IMG/VR virus record: IMGVR_UViG_2600255067_000001
Coordinates: 5,011 to 69,010 of that record
Origin: a virus
Direction: 5' to 3' (one strand)
Length of the DNA stretch: 64,000 bases
Made by a program: the position numbers and the translations under genes. The notes under the pieces were generated by a model that was given only the letters and a program-made list of their open reading frames with translations, was not told where the DNA came from and searched no databases. Shown piece after piece: positions 4,969 to 62,668 of this stretch; the first letter of the stretch is position 1, and every line of letters begins with the position of its first letter.

Positions 4969-4990
4969 TGAGGAAGGGAGACGGGATGAG

Positions 4991-5440
4991 CTACGCAGTG
5001 GGCATGACGCCGCTTTCCATCGCTTTGCAGAGGCGTACGGAGCGGTCGCCAACCTGCTTGTACCAGGCCGATGCCTTCATGCCGGCCGCGGCAATGGCGT
5101 AGGCGCCACGCTGGACGGCAGCCAGCGTGTTTTTGAAGCCGAGCAGCTTGTCGACGCCCAGGTTGAAGGCCATGTTGGCAATCACGCGCTGCCGGACCTC
5201 GTCGAGCTTGCGCCACCACGGCAGATGAAGATCGAGCCCGGCGAACGTGACAGTGAGGTCGTGATCCAGAAGTTGGTCAACCTGCGCATCGTTGAGCGGA
5301 AATTTCCACCCCGCAGGCAGCGGCGAGGCGAGCAGGTTGTGCCCTACTCCAGTGGTCGGAATGCCCTTCGTGTCGAGATACTTGACGTAGCGCACGCCCT
5401 CGTCACGACGCAGTTCCTTGTCCATCAAATCGAGGTTCAT
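4991..5440 (-). CDS. Phage lysozyme (T4-lysozyme-like, GH24 endolysin)
   Basis: 149 aa with motifs EGVRYVKYLDTKGIPTTGVGHNL and ANMAFNLGV, characteristic of lysozyme family endolysins. Confidence 0.8.
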   Translation of the reverse strand: MNLDLMDKELRRDEGVRYVKYLDTKGIPTTGVGHNLLASPLPAGWKFPLNDAQVDQLLDHDLTVTFAGLDLHLPWWRKLDEVRQRVIANMAFNLGVDKLLGFKNTLAAVQRGAYAIAAAGMKASAWYKQVGDRSVRLCKAMESGVMPTA

Positions 5441-5757
5441 TTCTTGTCCGCCTTCGCATCGAGCTTGTCGTCGATGCGTTCGAGCTTCGCGAACACGGCC
5501 TTGATGGCGTCGTTGAAGGCGTCGATAGCCTTTTGCATTTGCGTGTTCGGAACGTAGGTTTCGGCCACGTGCAACTTGTGGTCAGCCAGGGCGTCTTTCA
5601 GCGCGACTATCTGCTTGTGAGCGCCCTCAATCGCTTCGTCGCGCTTTACGTCACGCGCATCCGCCTGCGACTGCTGCCGACGGAATAGCCACCAAACAAC
5701 GGTGCCGGCGCCAGTGGCGGCCGTGCACCCGACTGCGGCTACGGAAGCCCAATCCAT
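5437..5757 (-). CDS. Lysis-associated membrane protein (N-terminal TM plus coiled coil; holin, antiholin or spanin-like)
   Basis: 106 aa. Has an N-terminal TM (VAAVGCTAATGAGTVVWWLF) followed by a charged helical region. It is the first gene of the lysis cassette and its end overlaps the lysozyme start. Confidence 0.5.
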   Translation of the reverse strand: MDWASVAAVGCTAATGAGTVVWWLFRRQQSQADARDVKRDEAIEGAHKQIVALKDALADHKLHVAETYVPNTQMQKAIDAFNDAIKAVFAKLERIDDKLDAKADKK

Positions 5758-5876
5758 GCAAATCCCCGAGGAAGTGGCCGCCTAGCGACGGCGCTGGTTA
5801 AAAAACTTGCACACTTTTCTGCACATGTGTTATCGTGCGCCGCATGTTGATAACGCGTTAGCACAAAGGTGAGCAA

Positions 5877-6626
5877 ATGAAAAAAGCAAAGACGGTTGTG
5901 AAGGTGATCGCCGCGGCTGCACTGTGCTGCGCCGGTACGGCACGCGCGGAGAGCTGGTTTCAGTTCGACGGTGGCCCCGCGCTAACGTCCGCGACGAAGG
6001 TTGGCGATGGCATCTACTATTCGCGCGGCTTCAGCCATGACACGCCGAACGGCTCATACGGGTTCCGCGCGGGCATCCAGTTCAACGCCATCGAGCCCGA
6101 TCACTGGATTCCGGGCGTGCGTGCGCACCTTGCCTATTACAACTTCGGCAAGGTGCGCTGGTCGTCAATGAACCCGCAGGACTCCGGGGACTTCACCTCG
6201 GAAGGCAAGGTCGGCGGCTACAACTCAGTCACCCTTTCCTGCAACGACTCGAACTGCGGCACCTTCCGCCGCTTCGACTCGGTCGGTGGCATCCAGGCTA
6301 TCGCGCTGACCGTCGAACCGTACTGGGACGTCGGCGGCGGCTGGCAGATCGGCGTGGAGGCTGGCCCGGCGCTTTACCGCAGCGTGTGGACATCGGTGGC
6401 CACGGCCATGTCGGACGGAAAATTCGGCCCGGCCGGCACGCAGGAGACGCTCACGCACACGCCTCGAATTCAGGCCGGCGCGCTGGCGGGCGTATCGGTA
6501 TCGAGGGGCGCGTATTCCGCGCGGCTGAACTACCTCTACGCTCCGGCGAAGTTCAACGAGAACGGGCGCGACGTGCCATCCGGCCTCAAAGGTGAATGGA
6601 TGCTTTCTCTCAATTACACTTGGTGA
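5877..6626 (+). CDS. Outer-membrane beta-barrel protein with signal peptide (Ail/Lom/OmpX-superfamily-like moron)
   Basis: Signal peptide MKKAKTVVKVIAAAALCCAGTARA, alternating amphipathic strands, and C-terminal ...LSLNYTW aromatic terminus. Own promoter with conserved motif, RBS AAAGGTGAG. Confidence 0.65.
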   Translation: MKKAKTVVKVIAAAALCCAGTARAESWFQFDGGPALTSATKVGDGIYYSRGFSHDTPNGSYGFRAGIQFNAIEPDHWIPGVRAHLAYYNFGKVRWSSMNPQDSGDFTSEGKVGGYNSVTLSCNDSNCGTFRRFDSVGGIQAIALTVEPYWDVGGGWQIGVEAGPALYRSVWTSVATAMSDGKFGPAGTQETLTHTPRIQAGALAGVSVSRGAYSARLNYLYAPAKFNENGRDVPSGLKGEWMLSLNYTW

Positions 6627-32792: not shown

Positions 32793-32918
32793 ACAGATCA
32801 ACTGCTCGCGTAGCTCAAGGAGAGCACCCGCTTCTTAAGCGGAAGGCGCGTCGGCGACGGCCGAACGGTTCGATTCCCGCCGCGGGCACCAATTTTCACC
32901 ACGCCCCAAGGAGGCACC

Positions 32919-33188
32919 ATGAGCACCACCGCATCAGGCATCGCCATGCAAGAAGTCGAGTCGTCGCAAATCCACAGCATCGGCCACGACCCGGCGCGCA
33001 ACGTTCTCGCCATCCGCTTCCGTTCGAAGCGCGGCCAGGGCTCGCTGTACGAATACCGGAACGTCACTGAGGCGACCTTCGAGGCGTTCCGCACCGCCGA
33101 GTCCATCGGCCGTTACTTCGGGCAGCACATCAAGCCGAACAAAGAGCTTTACCCCTTCGATAAGGTCGAAGAGCCCGTCGCGGCATGA
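32919..33188 (+). CDS. KTSC-domain protein
   Basis: 89 aa ...IHSIGHDPARNVLAIRF...GSLYEYRNVTEATFEAFRTAESIGRYFGQHIK matches the KTSC fold signature. RBS AAGGAGG. Confidence 0.6.
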   Translation: MSTTASGIAMQEVESSQIHSIGHDPARNVLAIRFRSKRGQGSLYEYRNVTEATFEAFRTAESIGRYFGQHIKPNKELYPFDKVEEPVAA

Positions 33189-33403
33189 CCGCGCCCAACT
33201 GGCGCGAGGCAGTGATCACGATCAACGGTCACTGCCTCACTGACGCGCAAAGCACTACCGTGCGCACGGCTCTCGAATCGCTGGCGATGAGCCTGAACGG
33301 CGATGCGCCGCTCGGCGACGACGAGCACGGCCGGCGCATGACTGCGGCATACCGGGCGCGGCTCGAAGAGATTCGCACCTTTCTCTACGGAGCATCCGCA
33401 TGA
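33185..33403 (+). CDS. Hypothetical small protein
   Basis: 72 aa, coupled. Confidence 0.45.
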   Translation: MTAPNWREAVITINGHCLTDAQSTTVRTALESLAMSLNGDAPLGDDEHGRRMTAAYRARLEEIRTFLYGASA

Positions 33404-33930
33404 CAGCCATGCAACACGCCTTCGACCGCGCGAGCGGCGAAAAGACGCCGTGGAATCCTTCACGCCGGGCCATCGCGCGCGTGAAGAATCCCCTTCCGGC
33501 ACCTACCGAATGCCCGCGTTGCGGGGGTGGCCCTGTCGAGGTCGTTCGAAACGCAGAAATCTACGGCCGCGACTATGGCGAATGGCCGTGGACGTACCTT
33601 TGTCGGCACTGCCGGGCCTACGTCGGCATGCACCCGTTCACTGCTATCCCGCTCGGCACGCTCGCCGACGCCCCGACGCGCGAGGCCCGCAAGCGCGCCA
33701 AGGCCGCGTTCAATCCGCTATGGCAGTCGGGCGAGATGACGCGCACCGAGGCTTATGCGTGGCTCGCCGCTCGCCTCGGCATCGCTGCGGCTGCGTGTCA
33801 CATCGGATGGTTCGACGTCGCCATGTGCCAGGCGGTCGAGCACGCTTGCCTCACAACGTCAGCGCGGGGGCGGACTCGGTCCACGTACGAACCGAAGCAG
33901 CCTCTCCGACGCCATGCTGAATCAACGTGA
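33400..33930 (+). CDS. Zinc-finger (CPRCGG...CRHCRAY) phage protein, DUF3268-like
   Basis: Treble-clef-like CxxC...CxxC near the N-terminus. The 3' end overlaps the convergent phosphatase gene, so the true stop may be earlier. Confidence 0.5.
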   Translation: MTAMQHAFDRASGEKTPWNPSRRAIARVKNPLPAPTECPRCGGGPVEVVRNAEIYGRDYGEWPWTYLCRHCRAYVGMHPFTAIPLGTLADAPTREARKRAKAAFNPLWQSGEMTRTEAYAWLAARLGIAAAACHIGWFDVAMCQAVEHACLTTSARGRTRSTYEPKQPLRRHAEST

Positions 33931-34570
33931 GCCGCGCGTCTCGCGTGGCATGGCCGGCGCCGGTGTCGATGTAGTGACGGGAGAACGCGCAGAACGGCGA
34001 CCGCACCGGCGTATGCCCCACGTATGTTAGCGACAACCCTTCGCGCGGCGGCACGGACTTACCACTCACCAGATCGCGGCCCCACAGCATGCGCATAGCG
34101 ACGTACGGCTCGAAATCCCCCTCGTCAAGCTCCGCATCGGTGCCGAAAAACTCGGCGTGCATCAGGTTGAACCGCTCGGCGCCATCGCCGACGACAATCG
34201 CGAGGGGCAATTCGCCAAGGCGGTCAGATACCTGTCGCAGTTCGGTCATGTCGCATCCTCGCGCCCATGCGCCGCCGTTCGCAACCCACCATTCCCAATG
34301 ACGGGCACTCGGATCGCTCACCACCGTGCGAAGCATCTCCTCGTGGTTGCCGCGCACCGCGTGGAACCACGGGCAGTCGAGCAACGTGAGAGCGCCACCG
34401 GAATCCGGTCCGCGGTCGATCAGGTCACCAACCGAGAAAAGCCGGTCGAACCGCGTATCGAACGCGACTCGACAAAGCAGTTCGTGCAGGGCCTCGGTGC
34501 AGCCGTGGATGTCGCCGACGATGAAGTCTCGTCCAGCGACGTTCGCCGGCAAGCGCTCAACTTGCGGCAT
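33851..34570 (-). CDS. Ser/Thr protein phosphatase (lambda-phosphatase-like metallophosphoesterase)
   Basis: 239 aa with GDIHGC, GDLIDRGPDS and GNHE motifs. Confidence 0.8.
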   Translation of the reverse strand: MPQVERLPANVAGRDFIVGDIHGCTEALHELLCRVAFDTRFDRLFSVGDLIDRGPDSGGALTLLDCPWFHAVRGNHEEMLRTVVSDPSARHWEWWVANGGAWARGCDMTELRQVSDRLGELPLAIVVGDGAERFNLMHAEFFGTDAELDEGDFEPYVAMRMLWGRDLVSGKSVPPREGLSLTYVGHTPVRSPFCAFSRHYIDTGAGHATRDARLTLIQHGVGEAASVRTWTESAPALTL

Positions 34571-34706
34571 GGCATCCCCCGCTCAGCACACCGTAAATCG
34601 GTGTCGGCGGTACGGTGTAGCCGAGCCGCCCGCGAATCATGATCAAGTCGTCAAGCGTGCGCGGCTTTGCCCACGCGCGAATCGCCGCCAACAGTTTTCC
34701 AAGCAT
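34557..34706 (-). CDS. Small protein upstream of, and overlapping, the phosphatase gene
   Basis: 49 aa MLGKLLAAIRAWAKPRTLDDLIMIRGRLGYTVPPTPIYGVLSGGCHAAS. RBS GTGGAGGACGGCG. The stop overlaps the phosphatase start. Confidence 0.4.
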   Translation of the reverse strand: MLGKLLAAIRAWAKPRTLDDLIMIRGRLGYTVPPTPIYGVLSGGCHAAS

Positions 34707-34765
34707 CGCCGTCCTCCACGACAAACGAAAACTTATCTTCGCCAGCGGAAATTCTTATTTCTCGC

Positions 34766-34794
34766 TTGACAAAGCCTTATACAAAACTAATAAT
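34766..34794 (+). promoter_or_regulatory. Sigma-70-like promoter TTGACA-16-TAATAAT for the toxin-antitoxin operon, giving a leaderless or near-leaderless mRNA
   Basis: cgcTTGACAaagccttatacaaaacTAATAATgcacacATG. The ATG lies 7 nt after the -10 element. Confidence 0.5.
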
Positions 34795-34800
34795 GCACAC

Positions 34801-35055
34801 ATGAACTCGATCCGCTGGTCACCGAAAGCAATGAAGCAGGTTCGCAAGCTGGACCGCAAAGACGGCGCTACGATTACGAAGGCCGTCGATGTGCTGGTGG
34901 CGTTCCCGAACTGCTCGAACATCAAGGCGCTGACGAACCACGAATACGGGTACCGCCTTCGGGTCGGCAACTACCGAGTGTTTTTCAACTACGACGGCGC
35001 GGTGCACGTCGTCTCTGTCGAAGAGGTCAAGAAACGCGATGAGCGCACGTACTGA
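34801..35055 (+). CDS. RelE/ParE-superfamily toxin (HigB-like, toxin-first arrangement)
   Basis: 84 aa ...GYRLRVGNYRVFFNYDGAVHVVSVEEVKKRDE typical of RelE/ParE toxins. Confidence 0.7.
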   Translation: MNSIRWSPKAMKQVRKLDRKDGATITKAVDVLVAFPNCSNIKALTNHEYGYRLRVGNYRVFFNYDGAVHVVSVEEVKKRDERTY

Positions 35056-35374
35056 ACCCCAAATCATTCGAGACGCCGCAGGGCGTCCGACTTTCGCCGT
35101 CATCCCCTACGGCGAATATCAGGAACTCGTCGGCAAGGCAGCCGAAGAGCCGTATATCCCGCACGCTGTCGTCAAGCGCGTGGTCGAAGACGGCGTTACG
35201 CCTGTGCGCGCGTGGCGTGAGCACCTTGAACTGACGCAAGCCGATGTCGCCTCGCGGCTCGGCATCTCGCAATCGGCCTACGCTCAGCAAGAGACTGCGG
35301 AGAAGCCGCGCAAATCGACGCTGAAGAAGATCGCGGACGCGCTCGGCATCTCGGTTAAGGTGCTCGACGTCTGA
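35039..35374 (+). CDS. HigA-like antitoxin with C-terminal XRE-type HTH
   Basis: 111 aa. It overlaps the toxin 3' end. HTH segment LTQADVASRLGISQSAYAQQE. The N-terminus (PTFAVIPYGEYQEL) is Phd/YefM-like. Confidence 0.65.
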   Translation: MSARTEPQIIRDAAGRPTFAVIPYGEYQELVGKAAEEPYIPHAVVKRVVEDGVTPVRAWREHLELTQADVASRLGISQSAYAQQETAEKPRKSTLKKIADALGISVKVLDV

Positions 35375-35453
35375 AGCTGGAGCGGGCTGCGAGAGTCGAA
35401 CTCGCGTAGACGGCTTGGAAGGCCGCAGCCTGACCACCTCGGCCAAGCCCGCA

Positions 35454-35531
35454 TGGTGCCCCCGGCATGGATTCGAACCCGCGACCCTTCCCTTACAGGG
35501 GGAACGCTCTGCCGTGCTGAGCTACGAGGGC
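35454..35531 (-). pseudogene. tRNA-Thr(UGU)-like sequence with a disrupted T-arm (probable pseudo-tRNA)
   Basis: Reverse complement GCCCTCGTAGCTCAGCACGGCAGAGCGTTCCCCCTGTAAGGGAAGGGTC GCGGGTTCGAATCCATGCCGGGGGCACCA. Acceptor, D and anticodon arms are good, but the T-stem cannot pair (GCGGG vs CCATG) and position 33 is C. Confidence 0.35.
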
Positions 35532-35535
35532 AAAC

Positions 35536-35611
35536 TGGCTGACCGAGCAGGGATTGAACCCGCCTCACGTGGATTAACAGTCCGGCCGCACACCGTTGTG
35601 CGTTTCGGTCA
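35536..35611 (-). tRNA. tRNA-Asn(GUU)-like (possibly degenerate)
   Basis: Reverse complement TGACCGAAACGCACAACGGTGTGCGGCCGGACTGTTAATCCACGTGAGGCGGGTTCAATCCCTGCTCGGTCAGCCA. Acceptor, D and T arms pair, discriminator is G73 and CCA is present. The anticodon stem has 2 mismatches and position 8 is A. Confidence 0.45.
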
Positions 35612-36297
35612 TCAAAATCGAAGAGAGCGGTCGGATTTGAACCGACGAGCGTCGCGTGGGTCCACCGCTTCGCATCCCAACCTGCTCGCAGCGTCCTGCT
35701 GGCATTCGCTCTCACGACTGCCGTTAGCTCCGCGTCCTACTTCATTCGGACTGCGCGCGGACAGAGGCGCGCCACCCTGCCGCCGGCATGCGTGAAAGCG
35801 CCCTTAACGACGGGCCGCCGGCGCGCTATGGACGCCTCACCCGGGATGTCATCCCCGGCAGTGTGCTGCGACACCTCTTGGTCTATGGCGCCGTCATCTG
35901 GTTAGCGAGGGTGGGTGCTCCTCAACCATCGGGCAAGTCTGAACCCATGCGGACCTGTCGTGCCGCTATCAACGCTGCGCCGAAACGCAGATACCGCGTG
36001 CTCAATGTGCCGTCCGGGGGTGCTCTGTGCAGCCGACCTGCACGTGACGGCATTAGCTCTCACAGAGGAGTTCGTGCGGAGAGGTCGCACGTTGCGCACC
36101 GTGGTCATTCCCGCTTGAGGTCCGCACGAACCCCTCTGTGAGAGCGCCGGGTGATCCGCATTCCGACCGGCCCGGCGCCAGTCCTCATATCCGCTGCGGT
36201 TCAGCGTTCCCGAGCCTTTCGGCCTTTTCACGGGGCATTGCGCGATCGTGGAGGCTTCCGCCTCCCGTTCTTCGCGCCAGTCGCTCACAGGTGTGAG

Positions 36298-45336: not shown

Positions 45337-46137
45337 ATGCAGAATCCGATTCGCAGCCTCTTTGCCACCGCAGCGTCCGTCGTTGCCGTGGTACTCGCCA
45401 TCATGTCTGTCCACGTCGTGCCCGCCGGGCATCGTGGAGTCGTCAAGCTGTTCGGAGACGTTCAAGACGCGCCGTTGCCGGAGGGCATCCACTTCCTCAA
45501 CCCGCTCGCGCGAGTGGTCGACTTCAATGTGCGCTTCCAGAGCGCAACAGCAACGAAGGCCGAAGGCGGCACCGCCGATTTGCAGGAGGTCTACGAAGAC
45601 ATCACCGTGAACTATGAATACGATCCGGCACACGCACCCTACGTGTACAACAATTTCGGTGACGACGCCGACATCGAGTCGAAGTTCATCATCCCGGCCC
45701 TGTACGAATCGTTCAAGGCCGTGACCTCGCAGTACACCGCTGAACAACTCGTGACGCAGCGCGCGAAAGTCTCGCAGGACATCGTGCAGAAGCTTCAATC
45801 GAAGCTTGCGAAGTACCGCATCATCGTCTCGGACATCAACGTCCAGAATTTCCACTTCGACTCTCAGTTCGCGGCTGCCGTGCGTCAGAAGGTCGTCGCA
45901 GGACAGAACCGGCTCACCGCCGAGCAGCAGCTCGAGACGGCCAAGGTGACGGCGCAGCAACGCATCGTCGAAGCCGAGGGCCAGGCGAAGGCAATTGCGA
46001 TTCAGGCTCAGGCGATCCAGCAACAGGGCGGACAGGAGTACGTCGCCCTCGAAGCAGTGAAGAAGTGGGATGGCAAGTTGCCGGCGCAGTGGTCCGGTGC
46101 CGCAATCCCGTTCGTCAACTTCGCAACGCAGAAGTAA
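45337..46137 (+). CDS. SPFH / band-7 (prohibitin, HflK/C-like) membrane protein
   Basis: 266 aa with N-terminal TM (AASVVAVVLAIMSV), an SPFH core (VVPAGHRGVVKLFG...) and a C-terminal coiled coil (AEQQLETAKVTAQQRIVEAEGQAKAIAIQAQA). Confidence 0.75.
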   Translation: MQNPIRSLFATAASVVAVVLAIMSVHVVPAGHRGVVKLFGDVQDAPLPEGIHFLNPLARVVDFNVRFQSATATKAEGGTADLQEVYEDITVNYEYDPAHAPYVYNNFGDDADIESKFIIPALYESFKAVTSQYTAEQLVTQRAKVSQDIVQKLQSKLAKYRIIVSDINVQNFHFDSQFAAAVRQKVVAGQNRLTAEQQLETAKVTAQQRIVEAEGQAKAIAIQAQAIQQQGGQEYVALEAVKKWDGKLPAQWSGAAIPFVNFATQK

Positions 46138-50446: not shown

Positions 50447-50886
50447 CTGTGGACGAACTGATTAAAGAACTGCGCGAGGCGCTATACGGCCCTGCACAAT
50501 GGGGCGACACGGTACTGATGAGCCGTGCGATCGACTCCCTCACCAGCCAGCAATCGCGCATCGCCGAACTGGAGGACGAGGTTAAGGCGCTGCGTACTGC
50601 CGAACACGTTGGAATACTGACGATCCGCCGCTTTCGAGGTTCCGACAGCATGGTGAACACAGACTTCGACTACTACGGCAATCTCCCGGATGGGTCGTAT
50701 CAGTGCTACGTCGCCCCTCCCGCTGAACCGGTTCTGTTGACGGATGGAACTGCCAGCAACTCATACGCGACTGCTGAACGTGAGCACCTTGGCGACCCCG
50801 ACAAACGCACCGGCATTTACGCGCGCCGGCCGACCCGATACGAATACCGAGACACGGGACCACTTGAGACAGGAGACGCACAATGA
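50443..50886 (+). CDS. Hypothetical protein
   Basis: 147 aa ORF. Confidence 0.5.
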   Translation: MTVDELIKELREALYGPAQWGDTVLMSRAIDSLTSQQSRIAELEDEVKALRTAEHVGILTIRRFRGSDSMVNTDFDYYGNLPDGSYQCYVAPPAEPVLLTDGTASNSYATAEREHLGDPDKRTGIYARRPTRYEYRDTGPLETGDAQ

Positions 50887-51395
50887 GCATCGCTTTCCGC
50901 GCCATGCAATTCGCCCGCCACGTGCATCGCGATCAAAAGCGGAAGTACACCGGCAATCCGTACACCGATCACCTTGCCGAGGTGGCGGGGATCGTGGCTA
51001 CTGTTGAGGGAAACTACATGGTCGGGGCCGGCGTGATTGTGGCAGTGGCATGGCTTCATGACTGTGTAGAAGATAAAGGCGTCAGCAAAGAAGAATTGAC
51101 GCGGCGGTTCGGGCATTGGGTGGCGGATGGTGTCATGCTGCTGTCCGACTTGGAGACCGGCAATCGGGCCGAGCGCAAGGCTGCGTCGCGTGCGCGGCTC
51201 GCCAATGCGCCGGCCTGGGTGCAGACCATCAAGTGCGCCGACCTCATCAGCAACACGTCGAGCATCGTCCAGCACGACCCAAAGTTCGCGGTCACCTACC
51301 TCGAAGAGAAACGGCTACTGCTCGACGTGCTGACCAAGGCCGATCCGCGCCTCGTCGAGATCGCGCGCACTCAGGCTACGCAGGTGCCGGCATGA
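50883..51395 (+). CDS. HD-domain phosphohydrolase (RelA/SpoT-type (p)ppGpp hydrolase-like)
   Basis: 170 aa, N-terminal HRDQKRKYTGNPYTDHLAEVA (H...HD metal-binding motif of HD_4 / small alarmone hydrolases). Confidence 0.6.
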   Translation: MSIAFRAMQFARHVHRDQKRKYTGNPYTDHLAEVAGIVATVEGNYMVGAGVIVAVAWLHDCVEDKGVSKEELTRRFGHWVADGVMLLSDLETGNRAERKAASRARLANAPAWVQTIKCADLISNTSSIVQHDPKFAVTYLEEKRLLLDVLTKADPRLVEIARTQATQVPA

Positions 51396-55990: not shown

Positions 55991-56018
55991 GGGGACCGTC
56001 TAGGCGGTCCCTTTTTTT
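55991..56018 (+). terminator. Rho-independent terminator
   Basis: ggggaccgtctaggcggtccc followed by ttttttt. Confidence 0.7.
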
Positions 56019-56125: not shown

Positions 56126-56356
56126 ATGAACAACAAGAACTTCCGCATAATATCGAGCCCGCTCAGGCCCGTAAGCTACCTGCTCGCGACCGGCGGCGTA
56201 GGCTTCGGGTATGAGGCAGACGGGCACGTCATGATTGAAGCGGGTGGCACGTTCGCACCCATCGAGGTCGAGAAGTATTTGCAGGACAACGGCGCGGCAT
56301 TCGAAGTCGCTCGTACGCACGGCCTCAAGGCCGGCCGCGCCCGGTTCAACGCGTGA
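56126..56356 (+). CDS. Hypothetical protein
   Basis: 76 aa, RBS AAAAAGGAA. Confidence 0.45.
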   Translation: MNNKNFRIISSPLRPVSYLLATGGVGFGYEADGHVMIEAGGTFAPIEVEKYLQDNGAAFEVARTHGLKAGRARFNA

Positions 56357-56364
56357 GGTCCGCC

Positions 56365-56637
56365 ATGACGACCACTCGCGAACAGTTCTATCAGGTGCGC
56401 CGCGCGCACCGCGAGATGCGCAGCGCGCTCAAGCTCCAGTGCGCATCGGCCTCTCGCATGGCGTTCCGTGCCGCAATCATGCGCATGGCGCCGATCAGCC
56501 TGCCTATCGACGTGGCCCGCGCCGCAGTCGAAAGCATAATACCGGGGCACGACTGGTTCCCTTCCCTCACGCAAGCAATCGAGCGTCAACAACGACGCGC
56601 GCTTTCGCTCGCCAGTCGTGCTAACGCGTGTGCATGA
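56365..56637 (+). CDS. Hypothetical protein
   Basis: 90 aa MTTTREQFYQVRRAHREMRSALKLQ... Confidence 0.4.
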   Translation: MTTTREQFYQVRRAHREMRSALKLQCASASRMAFRAAIMRMAPISLPIDVARAAVESIIPGHDWFPSLTQAIERQQRRALSLASRANACA

Positions 56638-56673: not shown

Positions 56674-57276
56674 ATGAAGATCAATGCAACAGCGTCGGCG
56701 TTCAAGGCGCTCCAGATAATAGCCCCGCGCGACGACATCCGTTACTACCTGAACGGTGTCTATGTCGAAGCGAAAGCGGGCGAAACGAGACTTGTCGCGA
56801 CGGACGGCCACCGCCTGGCGGTCTACCGCATCGAGTGCAATAACGATGTTCCAGACGGTCAAGCTGTATCGCTGATCGTGCCGAACTCCGTAATTGAACG
56901 CCTGCGCGTTAGCCGCACGTCGCCCGATGAAGTCGAAATCGGGTGGCTTGACGACGGGCGCGCCTACGTCTCGCACGACGATGTCCGCATCGCGTTCACA
57001 CCGACCGAAGGCAAGTTTCCCGACTACCGCAAGGTGATACCGCGGACCTTCACCAACACGCCAGGCAACTACAACCCGAGCTACCTCGCGGACTTCCAGA
57101 AGGTCGGCGCGGCACTGAAGCGGCAGCGCGGCCTTTCCAATGTCTACGTCGCTATGCGACAGAACGGCGAAAGCGGCGCATTGGTCACGGTCGCTGGGCT
57201 CGACAACTTCGCTGGCGTCGTGATGCCGCAGCGAATCGGCGATTCGCCATCCGTTGCATGGGCGACGATGCAATGA
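56674..57276 (+). CDS. Truncated DNA polymerase III beta-clamp homologue (DnaN domain II plus a minimal domain III)
   Basis: 200 aa. DIRYYLNGVYVEAKAGETRLVATDGHRLAV and GKFPDYRKVIPR align with the E. coli DnaN domain II motifs DVRYYLNGMLFE...LRTVATDGHRLAV and GRFPDYRRVLPK. The C-terminal VVMPQRI matches the DnaN terminus VVMPMRL. Confidence 0.65.
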   Translation: MKINATASAFKALQIIAPRDDIRYYLNGVYVEAKAGETRLVATDGHRLAVYRIECNNDVPDGQAVSLIVPNSVIERLRVSRTSPDEVEIGWLDDGRAYVSHDDVRIAFTPTEGKFPDYRKVIPRTFTNTPGNYNPSYLADFQKVGAALKRQRGLSNVYVAMRQNGESGALVTVAGLDNFAGVVMPQRIGDSPSVAWATMQ

Positions 57277-57377
57277 CGCCCTTCCTCTGCGAACTGGAAC
57301 GCCGTCACCCCATCGCATTCGCGATTGGCGGCGCACTCATCATCACTGCGGTCGTGCTGCTCGCGACCGCCACCTGA
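57273..57377 (+). CDS. Candidate hydrophobic micro-protein between the clamp-like gene and rtcB
   Basis: 34 aa MTPFLCELERRHPIAFAIGGALIITAVVLLATAT, ATGA overlap with the upstream stop, high GC3. Confidence 0.3.
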   Translation: MTPFLCELERRHPIAFAIGGALIITAVVLLATAT

Positions 57378-57385
57378 GACCCACC

Positions 57386-58582
57386 ATGAAGCAAGTCATT
57401 CACGAAGACGGCGCGCGGCCCGTCAAGGTCTGGACGAACGAAATCGAGGACGAAGCGTTGCAGCAGGCGAAGAACCTCGCTCGACTGCCGTTCATCCACC
57501 ACAACGGCGTGTCGCTCATGCCCGACGTCCACGCCGGCAAAGGTTCGACCATCGGCTCGGTGATTGCGACCGAGAAGGCGATCATCCCGGCGGCCGTGGG
57601 CGTCGATATCGGTTGCGGCATGAACGCTGTGCGACTTTCGCTGAAGGCGTCGGACCTCCCGGAAAGTCTCACCGCTATCCGGCATCAGATCGAGCGCGAC
57701 ATTCCGCTCGGCGCGGGCGGCCAGCATCAGCGGCCCGAAGACGTGCCGGCGATGCCTACAGCCTTCCTCGAGATGTTGTCGATGATCGCGGCGAAGCATC
57801 CCGGCATCGGCCGAGGTCTTGAAGCGAAGGCGGCGAAGCAGCTCGGTTCACTCGGTTCGGGAAACCACTTCATCGAACTCTGCCTCGACGAGAACGAAGA
57901 CGTGTGGGTGATGCTGCACAGCGGATCGCGCGGCATCGGCAACATGATCGGGACGTACTTCATCGAGCGTGCGAAGAAAGCCATGCGTGGATGGTTCGTC
58001 AACCTTCCCGACGCGGACCTCGCCTATCTGCCCGAAGACACCGACGACTTCAACGCCTATGTGCAGGCAGTCGAATGGGCGCAGGAATACGCCCTCGCCA
58101 ATCGGGCCGTGATGATGGATCGCGTCATTGCGGCACTGCGCCGCCATATCCCCGTCGAGTTCACGATCACGCAGGAAGCGATCAACTGCCACCACAACTA
58201 CATCGCGCGCGAGAACCACTTCGGCCGCAACCTGTGGGTGACTCGCAAGGGTGCGATTCGCGCGCGCGAAGGCGACCTCGGCATCATCCCCGGCTCGATG
58301 GGCCAGCGGAGCTACATCGTGCGCGGCAAGGGCGAATTGCAGTCGTACTGCTCGTGCTCGCACGGCGCCGGCCGACGCATGAGTCGCGCGAAGGCGCGGA
58401 AGCTCTTCAGCGTCGACGACCTCAAAGCGCAGACGGATGGCGTCGAGTGCCGCAAAGACGACGCCGTGCTCGACGAAATCCCGGCGGCCTACAAGGACAT
58501 CGACACGGTGATGGAGAACCAGCGCGACCTGGTCGAAGTCGTGCACGTGCTGAAGCAGGTTCTCTGCGTCAAGGGGGCCTAA
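57386..58582 (+). CDS. rtcB: RtcB RNA ligase
   Basis: 398 aa with MPDVHAGKG, GSGNHF, HSGSRG, NCHHNY and SCSHGAGR metal/GTP-binding motifs diagnostic of RtcB. Confidence 0.85.
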   Translation: MKQVIHEDGARPVKVWTNEIEDEALQQAKNLARLPFIHHNGVSLMPDVHAGKGSTIGSVIATEKAIIPAAVGVDIGCGMNAVRLSLKASDLPESLTAIRHQIERDIPLGAGGQHQRPEDVPAMPTAFLEMLSMIAAKHPGIGRGLEAKAAKQLGSLGSGNHFIELCLDENEDVWVMLHSGSRGIGNMIGTYFIERAKKAMRGWFVNLPDADLAYLPEDTDDFNAYVQAVEWAQEYALANRAVMMDRVIAALRRHIPVEFTITQEAINCHHNYIARENHFGRNLWVTRKGAIRAREGDLGIIPGSMGQRSYIVRGKGELQSYCSCSHGAGRRMSRAKARKLFSVDDLKAQTDGVECRKDDAVLDEIPAAYKDIDTVMENQRDLVEVVHVLKQVLCVKGA

Positions 58583-58585
58583 GCC

Positions 58586-58774
58586 ATGGGAGCCCGAAGC
58601 CTCTTTTCTCTCGCCGGCGCGGTCATTGCGGCAGCCGGCAAAGCGTGGCGCAACGCCGTGCCGCGCCCCGCCCTTCCGGCGCCGACTACCAGGACCAAGC
58701 GCGTCCGTCCGCGCCGGGTCACCTACGAACAGCGCGTGCGTGATCGCCTGCGCGCATCTGGAAAGGTGATGTGA
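58586..58774 (+). CDS. Small basic protein
   Basis: 62 aa, RBS AAGGGGG, Arg/Pro-rich C-terminus. Confidence 0.4.
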   Translation: MGARSLFSLAGAVIAAAGKAWRNAVPRPALPAPTTRTKRVRPRRVTYEQRVRDRLRASGKVM

Positions 58775-59265
58775 TGCCCGCGAGCAAAAAGCCACGTAAG
58801 CGGTATCGCCCGCGCGCTGCGGGCGCGGACATAGCAATGGGGCCGATAGGGCGCGCGATGCAAGCGCGCATTGACCGCGAGCCCATGACCGAAGATCAAG
58901 CGCGAGACCTCGGCATCGCCTACCACGTCGCGCTCGAGTGCATGCTCCGCGGCACGGGAGACGAAGAGTCGTGGTCGACGGTCACGTGCTCGCTGAACAT
59001 CGCGCTCGTGCTCGCCGAGCGCGGCATCGGCGCCGAGTACGAGCCGACTCTCGTACGCGCACTTGATGGCGCGTTCCGCGCGAAGCTGCGAGCACAACGG
59101 ACGGCCCGGTGGGCATACGACGGCGACGCCATCAACGACATCCGCGAAGCGTTCGCGCTCCACGACGAGCAGATGAAAGTCGCTCTCGTCGGCGAGGTGC
59201 GCGCGGCGCTTCGCGAGGTGCATCGGCGCATCGACGCCGGCAACGTGTACCGGGAGGCAGCATGA
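58771..59265 (+). CDS. Hypothetical protein
   Basis: 164 aa ORF with basic N-terminus. Confidence 0.5.
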   Translation: MMPASKKPRKRYRPRAAGADIAMGPIGRAMQARIDREPMTEDQARDLGIAYHVALECMLRGTGDEESWSTVTCSLNIALVLAERGIGAEYEPTLVRALDGAFRAKLRAQRTARWAYDGDAINDIREAFALHDEQMKVALVGEVRAALREVHRRIDAGNVYREAA

Positions 59266-60338
59266 CCATGACGAAAGGGCGGATCGAGCGCGCGGGCCGC
59301 GTCGTGTTCCACGATTCCGAATTACGCGTGTGGGAAGAAGGCATTCCGCGCGAATGGAATGCTGCGCGCGCGTGGGAACGCCAGTTCAAGCGCGACGTGT
59401 TCGCACGCATTGTGCAGACGCTCAACCGACTCGGCTGGACATGCGTTGTCCCGCCAGAGATGGTCAAGCAGTATGGCAAGAACTTTGCCGAAGACTACCG
59501 ATACTGCCGCAAGGGCGATCTGCAGGCCGAGCTTTCCCTCTCGGGGCGCTGCATCGAATTCGAGATGTGGCAGGACGTGCAGAACGGTAGCAATCCGAAC
59601 GGCGGCAAGTACGACTTCGACAAAGCATCCCGTATGACGTACCTGCAGCGCCTCGAGATGGAGCGCACGCGCCGGCGCATCCGCGACTATCTGTGCAACG
59701 TCTTCACCGGTTACGAATTCGAGTCGCCTCGAAATCCCGAGATTGGCGTGATGGGCATGACAGCCGAGGAATATGCCGAGCATAGCCGTCGCACGAGTGG
59801 CCATTATGTGCCCGAACTTGGCCGCGCTCGCATTTACCCTGGATCGCGCAACGATATTGCACGCGATGGCGGCACCATCGAGCACGGCGCTAAGGTATGG
59901 GCGATTGACCGCAAAGGCCGAATCGTCACCGGAACGGCCTACTACAGCCTGAATAACAACTGGCACATTGTCACCGGCAAATACGGGCTGCTCTATGCAC
60001 ACACGGGCGAGATATTCGCGAGCCGCCCCGACAACCTGCGGGTAAAACGCAACATGCGTGAGCGCCGCAAGCGACTTGAGCGCGAACTTGCGAAGGCGGT
60101 CGAGCAGATGAACTACGAGAGGGCCGCGACGCTGCGCGACATTCTATTTCCTGGCAACCCTGATCTGTTCAACGTATGGCACGACGAGCACCAGATGTAC
60201 CACTGCTCGGATTTCTGCGGTTATACGCGCGATCAATCGAAGGCCGGAAAGTTCACGGCCGACGAGGTCCGCGAATGGAACCGTGCGCCGAACAAGGTCA
60301 TACCGATCAGGCGAGAAGCCGAGATGGAGGCAGCGTGA
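59262..60338 (+). CDS. Hypothetical protein with UVR-like motif
   Basis: 358 aa (MTMTKGRIERAG...). ...RERRKRLERELAKAVEQMNYERAATLRDILF resembles the UvrB/UvrC UVR motif. Confidence 0.5.
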   Translation: MTMTKGRIERAGRVVFHDSELRVWEEGIPREWNAARAWERQFKRDVFARIVQTLNRLGWTCVVPPEMVKQYGKNFAEDYRYCRKGDLQAELSLSGRCIEFEMWQDVQNGSNPNGGKYDFDKASRMTYLQRLEMERTRRRIRDYLCNVFTGYEFESPRNPEIGVMGMTAEEYAEHSRRTSGHYVPELGRARIYPGSRNDIARDGGTIEHGAKVWAIDRKGRIVTGTAYYSLNNNWHIVTGKYGLLYAHTGEIFASRPDNLRVKRNMRERRKRLERELAKAVEQMNYERAATLRDILFPGNPDLFNVWHDEHQMYHCSDFCGYTRDQSKAGKFTADEVREWNRAPNKVIPIRREAEMEAA

Positions 60339-62613: not shown

Positions 62614-62640
62614 CGCGGCAGTGTCGGTCTGTCCAACCAA

Positions 62641-62668
62641 GGCCCGGCTATACGCCGGGCTTTTTCTT
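62641..62668 (+). terminator. Rho-independent terminator after the xis-like gene
   Basis: ggcccggctatacgccgggc followed by tttttc. Confidence 0.6.

Follow-up and report, generated by a model that had tools for sequence, protein, structure and literature searches.

Three consecutive genes in a 64,000-nucleotide stretch of viral DNA (positions 5,011 to 69,010 of IMG/VR record IMGVR_UViG_2600255067_000001; this whole stretch is "the window" in what follows) encode a shortened relative of the bacterial sliding clamp DnaN, a hydrophobic peptide and the RNA ligase RtcB:

56674-57276, + strand: short beta-clamp of 200 amino acids (aa), a phrog_3007 member
57273-57377, + strand: micro-ORF (open reading frame) of 34 aa, its start overlapping the clamp stop codon (ATGA)
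57386-58582, + strand: rtcB, 398 aa, ligase of RNA 3'-phosphate/2',3'-cyclic-phosphate to 5'-OH ends

An earlier note, made from the letters of the window, had proposed that the three form a single anti-defense module. The analysis presented here leans, with some assurance and a good deal of room for doubt, to a different reading: that these genes are not one machine, and that a mobile rtcB cassette lies beside a non-ring, pocket-only clamp and a membrane micro-peptide that is coupled to the clamp. The idea of a clamp fragment and an RNA ligase at work together fails, and both components are of already known kinds. The remaining interest lies in the short clamp, as a member of an uncharacterised family with a conserved partner-binding pocket.

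The separability of rtcB and clamp is seen in the string of genes of which they are part:

56126-56356, + strand: p76, conserved hypothetical protein of 76 aa, invariably ahead of the clamp gene in this lineage (72-78% identical between the window and related prophages)
56365-56637, + strand: p90, conserved hypothetical protein of 90 aa, directly upstream of the clamp (60-76% identity in related prophages)
58586-58774, + strand: p62, 62 aa, present only in some rtcB-carrying relatives (a second, nested insertion/deletion; absent in the B. pseudomallei prophage at locus L023)
58771-59265, + strand: p164 (phrog_20828), of unknown function, directly after the micro-ORF in rtcB-less relatives
59262-60338, + strand: p358 (phrog_7674, E 4e-128), with a UvrB/UvrC-type UVR motif, downstream of p164 and conserved in related prophages

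Close relatives of this string were found through the protein database and exact-protein look-ups (searching genome contigs with the clamp protein returned only distant matches, at no more than 39% identity, and no close prophages; searches with the flanking p164 and p76 yielded too few loci to be informative). Prophages of Burkholderia (B.) multivorans (GCA_904849795.1, loci L202/L203) and B. anthina (CP071825.1, loci L204/L205) have the same order of genes as the window--RecT, exonuclease, p242, NinB, p76, p90, clamp, micro-ORF, p164--at 60-80% protein identity (the exceptions are RecT, at 36-38%, and the micro-ORF, at 55-62%), and they have no rtcB: p164 directly follows a 36-aa micro-ORF. 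The DNA alignment with these relatives stops at window position 57129 and resumes at 58782; the extra DNA of the window, ~1.38 kilobases (kb), consists of rtcB and p62. The B. pseudomallei version has rtcB and lacks p62. Thus rtcB (~1.2 kb) and p62 (~0.19 kb) are nested present-or-absent cassettes in collinear prophage modules. Since the syntenic rtcB-less relatives keep clamp and micro-ORF together, it is rtcB that is the optional element, and the micro-ORF accompanies the clamp rather than RtcB; the rtcB gene would be an independently mobile cassette that has entered some members of the lineage between micro-ORF and p164. Co-conservation of rtcB and clamp in related prophages, which the earlier note had named beforehand as one of the points on which its proposal would turn, is absent in B. 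multivorans and B. anthina. Collinear prophages with and without rtcB also constitute a natural pair for testing protection by phage RtcB against tRNA-cutting defenses.

A census covered the 80 best IMG/VR short-clamp loci, on the one side, and 80 viral loci where RtcB identity is 64-81%, on the other. RtcB is found within 6 kb of a short clamp at a single one of the former, a Burkholderia prophage of the same lineage; a clamp-family ORF is found within 5 kb of RtcB at two of the latter, one being the same Burkholderia contig. (The second is an unrelated viral contig, L129, in which the clamp ORF, at 1600-2316, comes after a PolB-exonuclease-like gene; RtcB, at 5001-6185, is 2.7 kb downstream of the clamp and not adjacent to it, just ahead of DUF4224 and an integrase.) RtcBs at 77-81% identity are carried by unrelated phages, where the flanking genes are unrelated too (gp041 of Bordetella phage PHB04, at 77%, is one example), and the genes upstream of phage RtcBs are altogether very heterogeneous.

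What, then, is the short clamp? Its sole Pfam match is to PF02767 (residues 7-117, E 3.4e-15), and a profile of 51 homologs aligns to solved beta clamps at residues ~143-252 and at the last ~30 (DnaN 338-367); no solved structure of a short homolog is among the matches to that profile. The predicted model is a compact beta-clamp fold of 1.5 clamp domains (predicted local distance difference test, pLDDT, 95), with structural matches to short phage proteins in BFVD at TM-scores up to 0.83. The protein is DnaN domain II plus half of domain III, without domain I: on this point the reading of the earlier note was correct, and its fold check came out as it had anticipated. Compared with DnaN (E. coli b3701), the short clamp has 200 aa, the maximal length of its ORF, instead of ~366; it lacks the three-domain architecture (PF00712, PF02767, PF02768), and its score against the DnaN equivalog TIGR00663, 77.4 bits, is below the family threshold of 137.65.

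The match to phrog_3007 (E 1.4e-30) runs from residue 1 to 188 of the protein and from position 1 to 186 of the 190-position profile. This family comprises 270 phage records, mostly from enterobacterial, Ralstonia and Burkholderia hosts; the protein database holds 393 homologs, mostly of 188-240 aa, and the invariant motifs of the family are DIRYYLNGV, ATDGH, FPDYR, HNG and GVVMP. For more than 20 years databases have listed short clamps under names that contradict each other ("DNA polymerase III beta", "RusA-like resolvase"), and the record of phage Bcep781 already names its clamp gene "DNA Pol III b subunit fragment". (The second label, in full "RusA-like Holliday junction resolvase", is attached to phrog_3007 and to many RefSeq phage records, NC_005887.1, NC_004333.2, NC_016566.1 and others among them. 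It was considered and rejected: there is no PF05866 match in Pfam at E<=1, and the fold is that of a beta clamp. It looks like a propagated annotation error.) A described role for the short clamp, or a characterised truncated phage clamp, was not found in the searchable literature, much as the earlier note had said.

Pocket residues for clamp-binding motifs on E. coli DnaN were taken from a 2024 review (PMC11139829) and followed through 120 short-clamp homologs. In E. coli numbering, R152, L155, G174, H175, L177, P242, V247, V360, M362 and P363 recur unchanged in 93-100% of these, P363 being invariant; T172, R246, N320 and R365 are kept in 71-76% (N320 in 74%) and Y323 in 63%. In subsite I, 10 of the 12 residues match E. 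coli in at least 71% of the homologs, 8 of those 10 in at least 93%. Mean column conservation across the family alignment is 0.51, and 10 of the 18 pocket positions fall within its 35 most conserved columns (Fisher p 1.3e-4): the best-conserved columns of the family are those that, by alignment, correspond to the lining of the DnaN clamp-binding-motif pocket.

The ring has fared differently. DnaN closes into a ring through a dimer interface formed by I78 and F106 in domain I and by I272 and L273 in domain III. Judged by sequence, loss of the domain I half of this interface is secure, and loss of the domain III half (I272/L273) is probable: the best-scoring alignment deletes DnaN 252-311, in which both residues lie, and E. 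coli deletion constructs score 99.5, 98.6 and 96.6 bits against the family hidden Markov model (best and next alignment being ~1 bit apart). With the canonical head-to-tail dimer interface missing in its domain I half and probably in its domain III half, a DnaN-type ring is not to be expected of the short clamp. The family appears to retain precisely the partner-binding pocket and to drop the ring. That pocket, in DnaN, is a current antibiotic target.

These features suggest the following scheme. The short-clamp family would have arisen when DnaN lost its domain I and one half of domain III, in all likelihood the one with the I272/L273 helix; the remaining domain II and adjoining half domain III would form a hydrophobic pocket for QLxLF-type clamp-binding motifs; and the product would be a non-ring, pocket-only derivative that binds proteins bearing such motifs. 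Candidate partners are the α, ε and δ subunits of host DNA polymerase III (Pol III), Hda, MutS/MutL and translesion polymerases, or, in phages that encode a polymerase, that polymerase itself. The short clamp would accordingly serve phage DNA replication or recombination, whether as adaptor or as competitor, and would have no part in RNA repair. Both kinds of action, recruitment (as adaptor or as a processivity factor of the UL42 type) and competition (as decoy), would fit its sequence. The herpesvirus non-ring processivity factors (HSV-1 UL42, HCMV UL44, KSHV PF-8), which have the clamp fold and bind a polymerase peptide and do not form a closed ring, offer a possible working analogy. In its fuller form--a monomeric, pocket-only class of phage proteins that captures or redirects host clamp-binding proteins (the Pol III core, δ, Hda, MutS/MutL, translesion polymerases), with RtcB unrelated to it--the proposal is put forward tentatively, as a serious possibility short of a favored conclusion. 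If it is true, it describes a new way to hijack the replisome or to evade mismatch repair, one open to no fewer than 270 sequenced phages and to viral contigs in the hundreds; if clamp-binding motifs are indeed bound, the family represents a common, unstudied means by which phages borrow, or interfere with, the host replisome.

The genomic surroundings of short clamps in other phages speak to their function with more than one voice. Typical neighbors are DNA polymerase A, RepB-primase/DUF5906, AAA_25 helicase, exonucleases and RdgC (the latter adjoins the short clamp in Achromobacter). In several phages it is part of a DUF2800/Enc34-SSB/polymerase module, directly after the gene of the family A polymerase; at 21-25 of the 80 viral loci it is near a RepB-primase/DUF5906 protein, opposite the large terminase. 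In Bcep781 (4977-5558) and Shigella phage EP23 (4998-5510) it is a lone opposite-strand gene inside the head-morphogenesis cluster. (These last two are lytic siphoviruses; the placement is moron-like and distant from replication genes.) Named members of phrog_3007 (Bcep781 gp15, BcepC6B gp31, EP23 p08, the "putative beta-clamp protein" of Serratia phage Eta) share length class and motifs with the window protein; unlike it, the other members adjoin polymerase or primase genes or stand alone among head genes, and these named ones have neither RtcB nor the ERRHP micro-peptide alongside.

Four considerations weigh against the separation of rtcB from a pocket-only clamp as presented here: 1) In DnaN, too, conservation is highest in the pocket, and it is by the pocket that homologs reveal themselves, so that some of its enrichment among conserved columns is ascertainment. 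2) A clamp ending in the III_B module (which carries N320 and Y323) and one ending in a III_A/III_B chimera are not separable by sequence (99.5 against 98.6 bits). 3) Placement as a lone opposite-strand gene in a head-gene cluster, the situation in many lytic phages, suits an accessory gene for host takeover or anti-defense as well as it suits a replication factor. 4) Clamp and rtcB are adjacent in three Burkholderia/Paraburkholderia sublineages, which lends a functional link specific to this lineage some small probability.

Among other explanations of the short clamp, the one that survives best is that it is a host-takeover or anti-repair decoy, titrating δ, Hda, MutS/MutL or translesion polymerases and thereby shutting off host replication or mismatch repair to the advantage of phage recombination. 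This is, strictly, a sub-case of capture by a pocket-only clamp, one that predicts inhibition instead of recruitment. A pocket conserved without the elements of the ring is what a decoy would require, and the affinity of δ, which is ~50 times stronger for monomeric beta than for the dimer (PMC11139829), speaks for one as well. The company that the gene keeps (RecT, exonuclease and NinB here, RdgC in Achromobacter) and its moron-like placement in lytic phages point the same way. However, no phage DNA polymerase was detected among the window ORFs scanned, so that this phage probably relies on the host replisome for its own replication, and a general sponge for replisome components would be self-harming. 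A decoy is, on these grounds, doubtful, although less so than the explanations that follow.

Alternatively, the short clamp might be a true processivity factor, making up for its missing domains by oligomerizing (four 1.5-domain subunits, for example, provide six domains), by forming a ring with host DnaN, or by binding DNA in the manner of UL42, directly and with no ring around it, so as to keep a polymerase on the template. Its place directly after a family A DNA polymerase in several phages, and the retention of clamp fold and pocket, are what one would look for in such a protein. Against this stand the apparent lack of a polymerase in the window, the distance of the gene from replication genes in Bcep781 and EP23, and the absence of the canonical ring interface (domain I and, probably, I272/L273). 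A processivity factor in this stricter sense is judged unlikely.

What of the original proposal, that half clamp, micro-peptide and RtcB are one anti-defense module in which the clamp tethers RtcB to replisomes or the two act as a joint decoy? The three genes are, to be sure, adjacent and tightly spaced in the window, and clamp, micro-ORF and rtcB are likewise consecutive in B. pseudomallei prophages and on a metagenomic contig (61-68% clamp identity), but the whole 8 kb region is syntenic in these rtcB-carrying relatives, so that the adjacency is inherited rather than selected and is therefore little informative. Canonical clamp-binding motifs, by which a clamp might hold RtcB, were not found near any terminus of 14 neighboring proteins, RtcB included (RecT was scanned from a wrong start); the sole internal motif-like sequence, QAELSL in p358, was judged not meaningful. 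Taken with the syntenic prophages that retain clamp and micro-ORF without rtcB, and with co-occurrence at one locus in 80 and two in 80, this makes the single module very improbable: a functional pairing of clamp and RtcB, be it as tether, decoy or shared module, is not supported, and their juxtaposition is better regarded as an inherited by-product of accessory-gene insertion. As for the possibility that the clamp-like ORF is the non-functional remnant of a captured host dnaN, as two thirds of the ring-forming parts being missing and the "fragment" label of the Bcep781 annotators might suggest, it is scarcely credible for a gene with an intact Shine-Dalgarno sequence and normal coding GC3 (GC content at third codon positions) whose product has a compact fold predicted with high confidence and belongs to a family of constant length (190-240 aa) with motifs that are invariant across hundreds of phages; the earlier note, too, had preferred a functional gene.

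The RtcB of the window is, by its sequence, a canonical RtcB and an ordinary accessory RNA ligase of phages. It matches PF01139 over the full profile (positions 1-426 of 426, E 1.1e-129) and phrog_1075 (E 2.4e-155), and is 54% identical to E. coli RtcB in pairwise alignment. The hallmark motifs noticed at the outset are there: the VDIGCG, GNHF, LHSGSRG, CHHNY and SHGAGR segments are unchanged between the two proteins. We take these segments to contain the E. coli catalytic residues D75, C78, H168, H185, H281, H337 and R341; the list of metal-binding and guanylylation residues reportedly goes back to mutagenesis in the Shuman laboratory. Enzymes of the RtcB family join RNA 3'-phosphate or 2',3'-cyclic-phosphate ends to 5'-OH ends in a reaction dependent on GTP and Mn2+. 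Affiliation with the RtcB2 subtype, which would have made this gene half of a PrfH-linked ribosome-rescue pair, was tried and ruled out by a sub-cut-off score against TIGR03073 (release_rtcB; 144 bits against 271.8) and by the lack of a neighboring release factor: RtcA, RtcR and PrfH/release-factor genes were not recognised among the neighboring genes scanned. In contrast to the E. coli rtcBA operon, which includes RtcA, the window rtcB stands alone, as do other phage rtcBs (PHB04 gp041, BcepSauron, mycobacteriophages). RtcB is annotated in 624 phage records, mostly from actinobacterial and firmicute hosts.

Phage RtcBs have already been read as a countermeasure to RNA-cutting effectors (PMC7824862), and by analogy an anti-defense role in RNA repair is plausible for this one. 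If it follows its family, its most likely targets are phage or host tRNAs and rRNAs in which ribotoxins have produced breaks with 2',3'-cyclic-phosphate and 5'-OH ends, and these it would reseal. The repair of PrrC-cut tRNA-Lys by Pnkp and Rnl1 of phage T4 obeys a like logic (a phage ligase undoes cleavage by a host anticodon nuclease) and uses different chemistry: RtcB seals directly, with no kinase/phosphatase step, and a cognate nuclease for the window RtcB is only hypothetical. The phage has tRNA genes of its own:

32804-36374: prophage tRNA cluster, Lys-CTT, Gly-TCC, Thr-TGT and Met-CAT (tRNA-Lys at 32804, tRNA-Gly/Thr at 35378-35531)

These four tRNAs, together with the mobile-cassette behavior of rtcB, fit the reading as RNA-repair countermeasure, and they might possibly be substrates of RtcB. 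They are not next to rtcB, as had been supposed: the cluster, in the same prophage, is ~21 kb upstream. (A gene for a calcineurin-like metallophosphoesterase, at 33851-34570 on the - strand, lies inside the cluster; its product, beside tRNAs, could be a candidate RNA-end healing enzyme.)

The hydrophobic ORF that the earlier note had placed between clamp and rtcB is there, at 57273-57377. Its 34-aa product, MTPFLCELERRHPIAFAIGGALIITAVVLLATAT, has a short charged N-terminus (F/L-E-R-R/Q-H-P) and then a single hydrophobic helix. In five lineages, the rtcB-less ones included, a frame of 33-36 codons stays open, with its start overlapping the clamp stop and with a common core (F/L-E/D-R-R/Q-H-P-x-x-F-x-I-x-G-A-L, then a hydrophobic tail). 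The ratio of nonsynonymous to synonymous substitution rates (dN/dS) is 0.37-0.71 in frame as against 0.37-1.03 in a shifted frame, for 33 codons only; the micro-ORF is taken to be coding on the strength of its conserved frame, its overlap with the clamp stop and a motif common to five lineages. It is probably a real, small, single-helix membrane peptide specific to this lineage, in which alone it would be translationally coupled to the clamp. Outside the lineage a small hydrophobic ORF follows the clamp at 5 of 87 loci, as against 17 of 428 control genes: there is no enrichment. (At three unrelated short-clamp loci, L094, L100 and L105, a single-helix membrane ORF of 54-66 aa starts between 3 nt before and 12 nt after the clamp stop.) Translational coupling had been claimed for all three genes. 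For clamp and micro-ORF the ATGA overlap bears this out; between the micro-ORF stop and the rtcB ATG there is a gap of 8 nt, and no obvious Shine-Dalgarno sequence for rtcB is present in the window. For that reason, ribosomes may have to reinitiate after the micro-ORF if rtcB is to be translated.

The transcriptional setting of the string is defined by a hairpin:

55991-56012, + strand: terminator-like, GC-rich hairpin, GGGGACCGTCTAGGCGGTCCCT, then T7, separating the RecT-exonuclease-NinB module from the accessory string

The next + strand terminator-like site is at 62639-62663, and the stretch from 52 to 64 kb yielded no sigma-70-like promoter. We infer that a transcription-unit boundary lies at 55991-56012; a strong hairpin ahead of the p76-clamp-rtcB string suggests that the latter is expressed by read-through or antitermination. 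After the hairpin the genes are tightly packed (p76, p90, clamp-like gene, micro-ORF, rtcB, p62, p164, p358 and others, up to 62639), and clamp, micro-ORF and rtcB would belong to a delayed-early accessory string downstream of the RecT/exonuclease/NinB recombination module. p76 and p90 have no Pfam or PHROG match, and for nine genes between 56126 and 60742 no PADLOC defense model is matched at E<=0.01.

The window comes from a chromosome of Paraburkholderia kururiensis: its clamp-like protein has 100% identity to one encoded in GCA_000739795.1 (contig BBJI01000001). Most of the window is a temperate prophage of more than 60 kb. The phage context recognised at the outset is confirmed by an integrase, structural genes, RecT and NinB:

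10-85: tRNA-His
171-1160, - strand: host dus
1287-2471: integrase
~8-32 kb, - strand: putative structural block (one segment matches a Ralstonia phage sheath gene; "structural" is our reading)
downstream of the tRNA cluster, + strand: long early region
38345-39493, in the early region: O-like/DnaD-like replication initiator

The early region also encodes RecT, two exonuclease-like proteins and NinB. When the window was compared with isolated phages by megablast, only rtcB, methyltransferase genes and one sheath gene were matched; the prophage is without a close sequenced phage relative.

Several other genes of the early region deserve brief mention. Two neighboring DNA methyltransferases, of N6/N4 and C5 type (40123-42310, + strand), are probably anti-restriction enzymes; the C5 methyltransferase region has 77-78% DNA identity to genes of Caulobacter and Pseudanabaena phages. 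A protein of the SPFH/Band 7 family is encoded at 45337-46137 (+ strand), and a protein with an HD_4 (RelA/SpoT-type HD hydrolase) domain, possibly a hydrolase of nucleotide signals, at 50883-51395 (+ strand).

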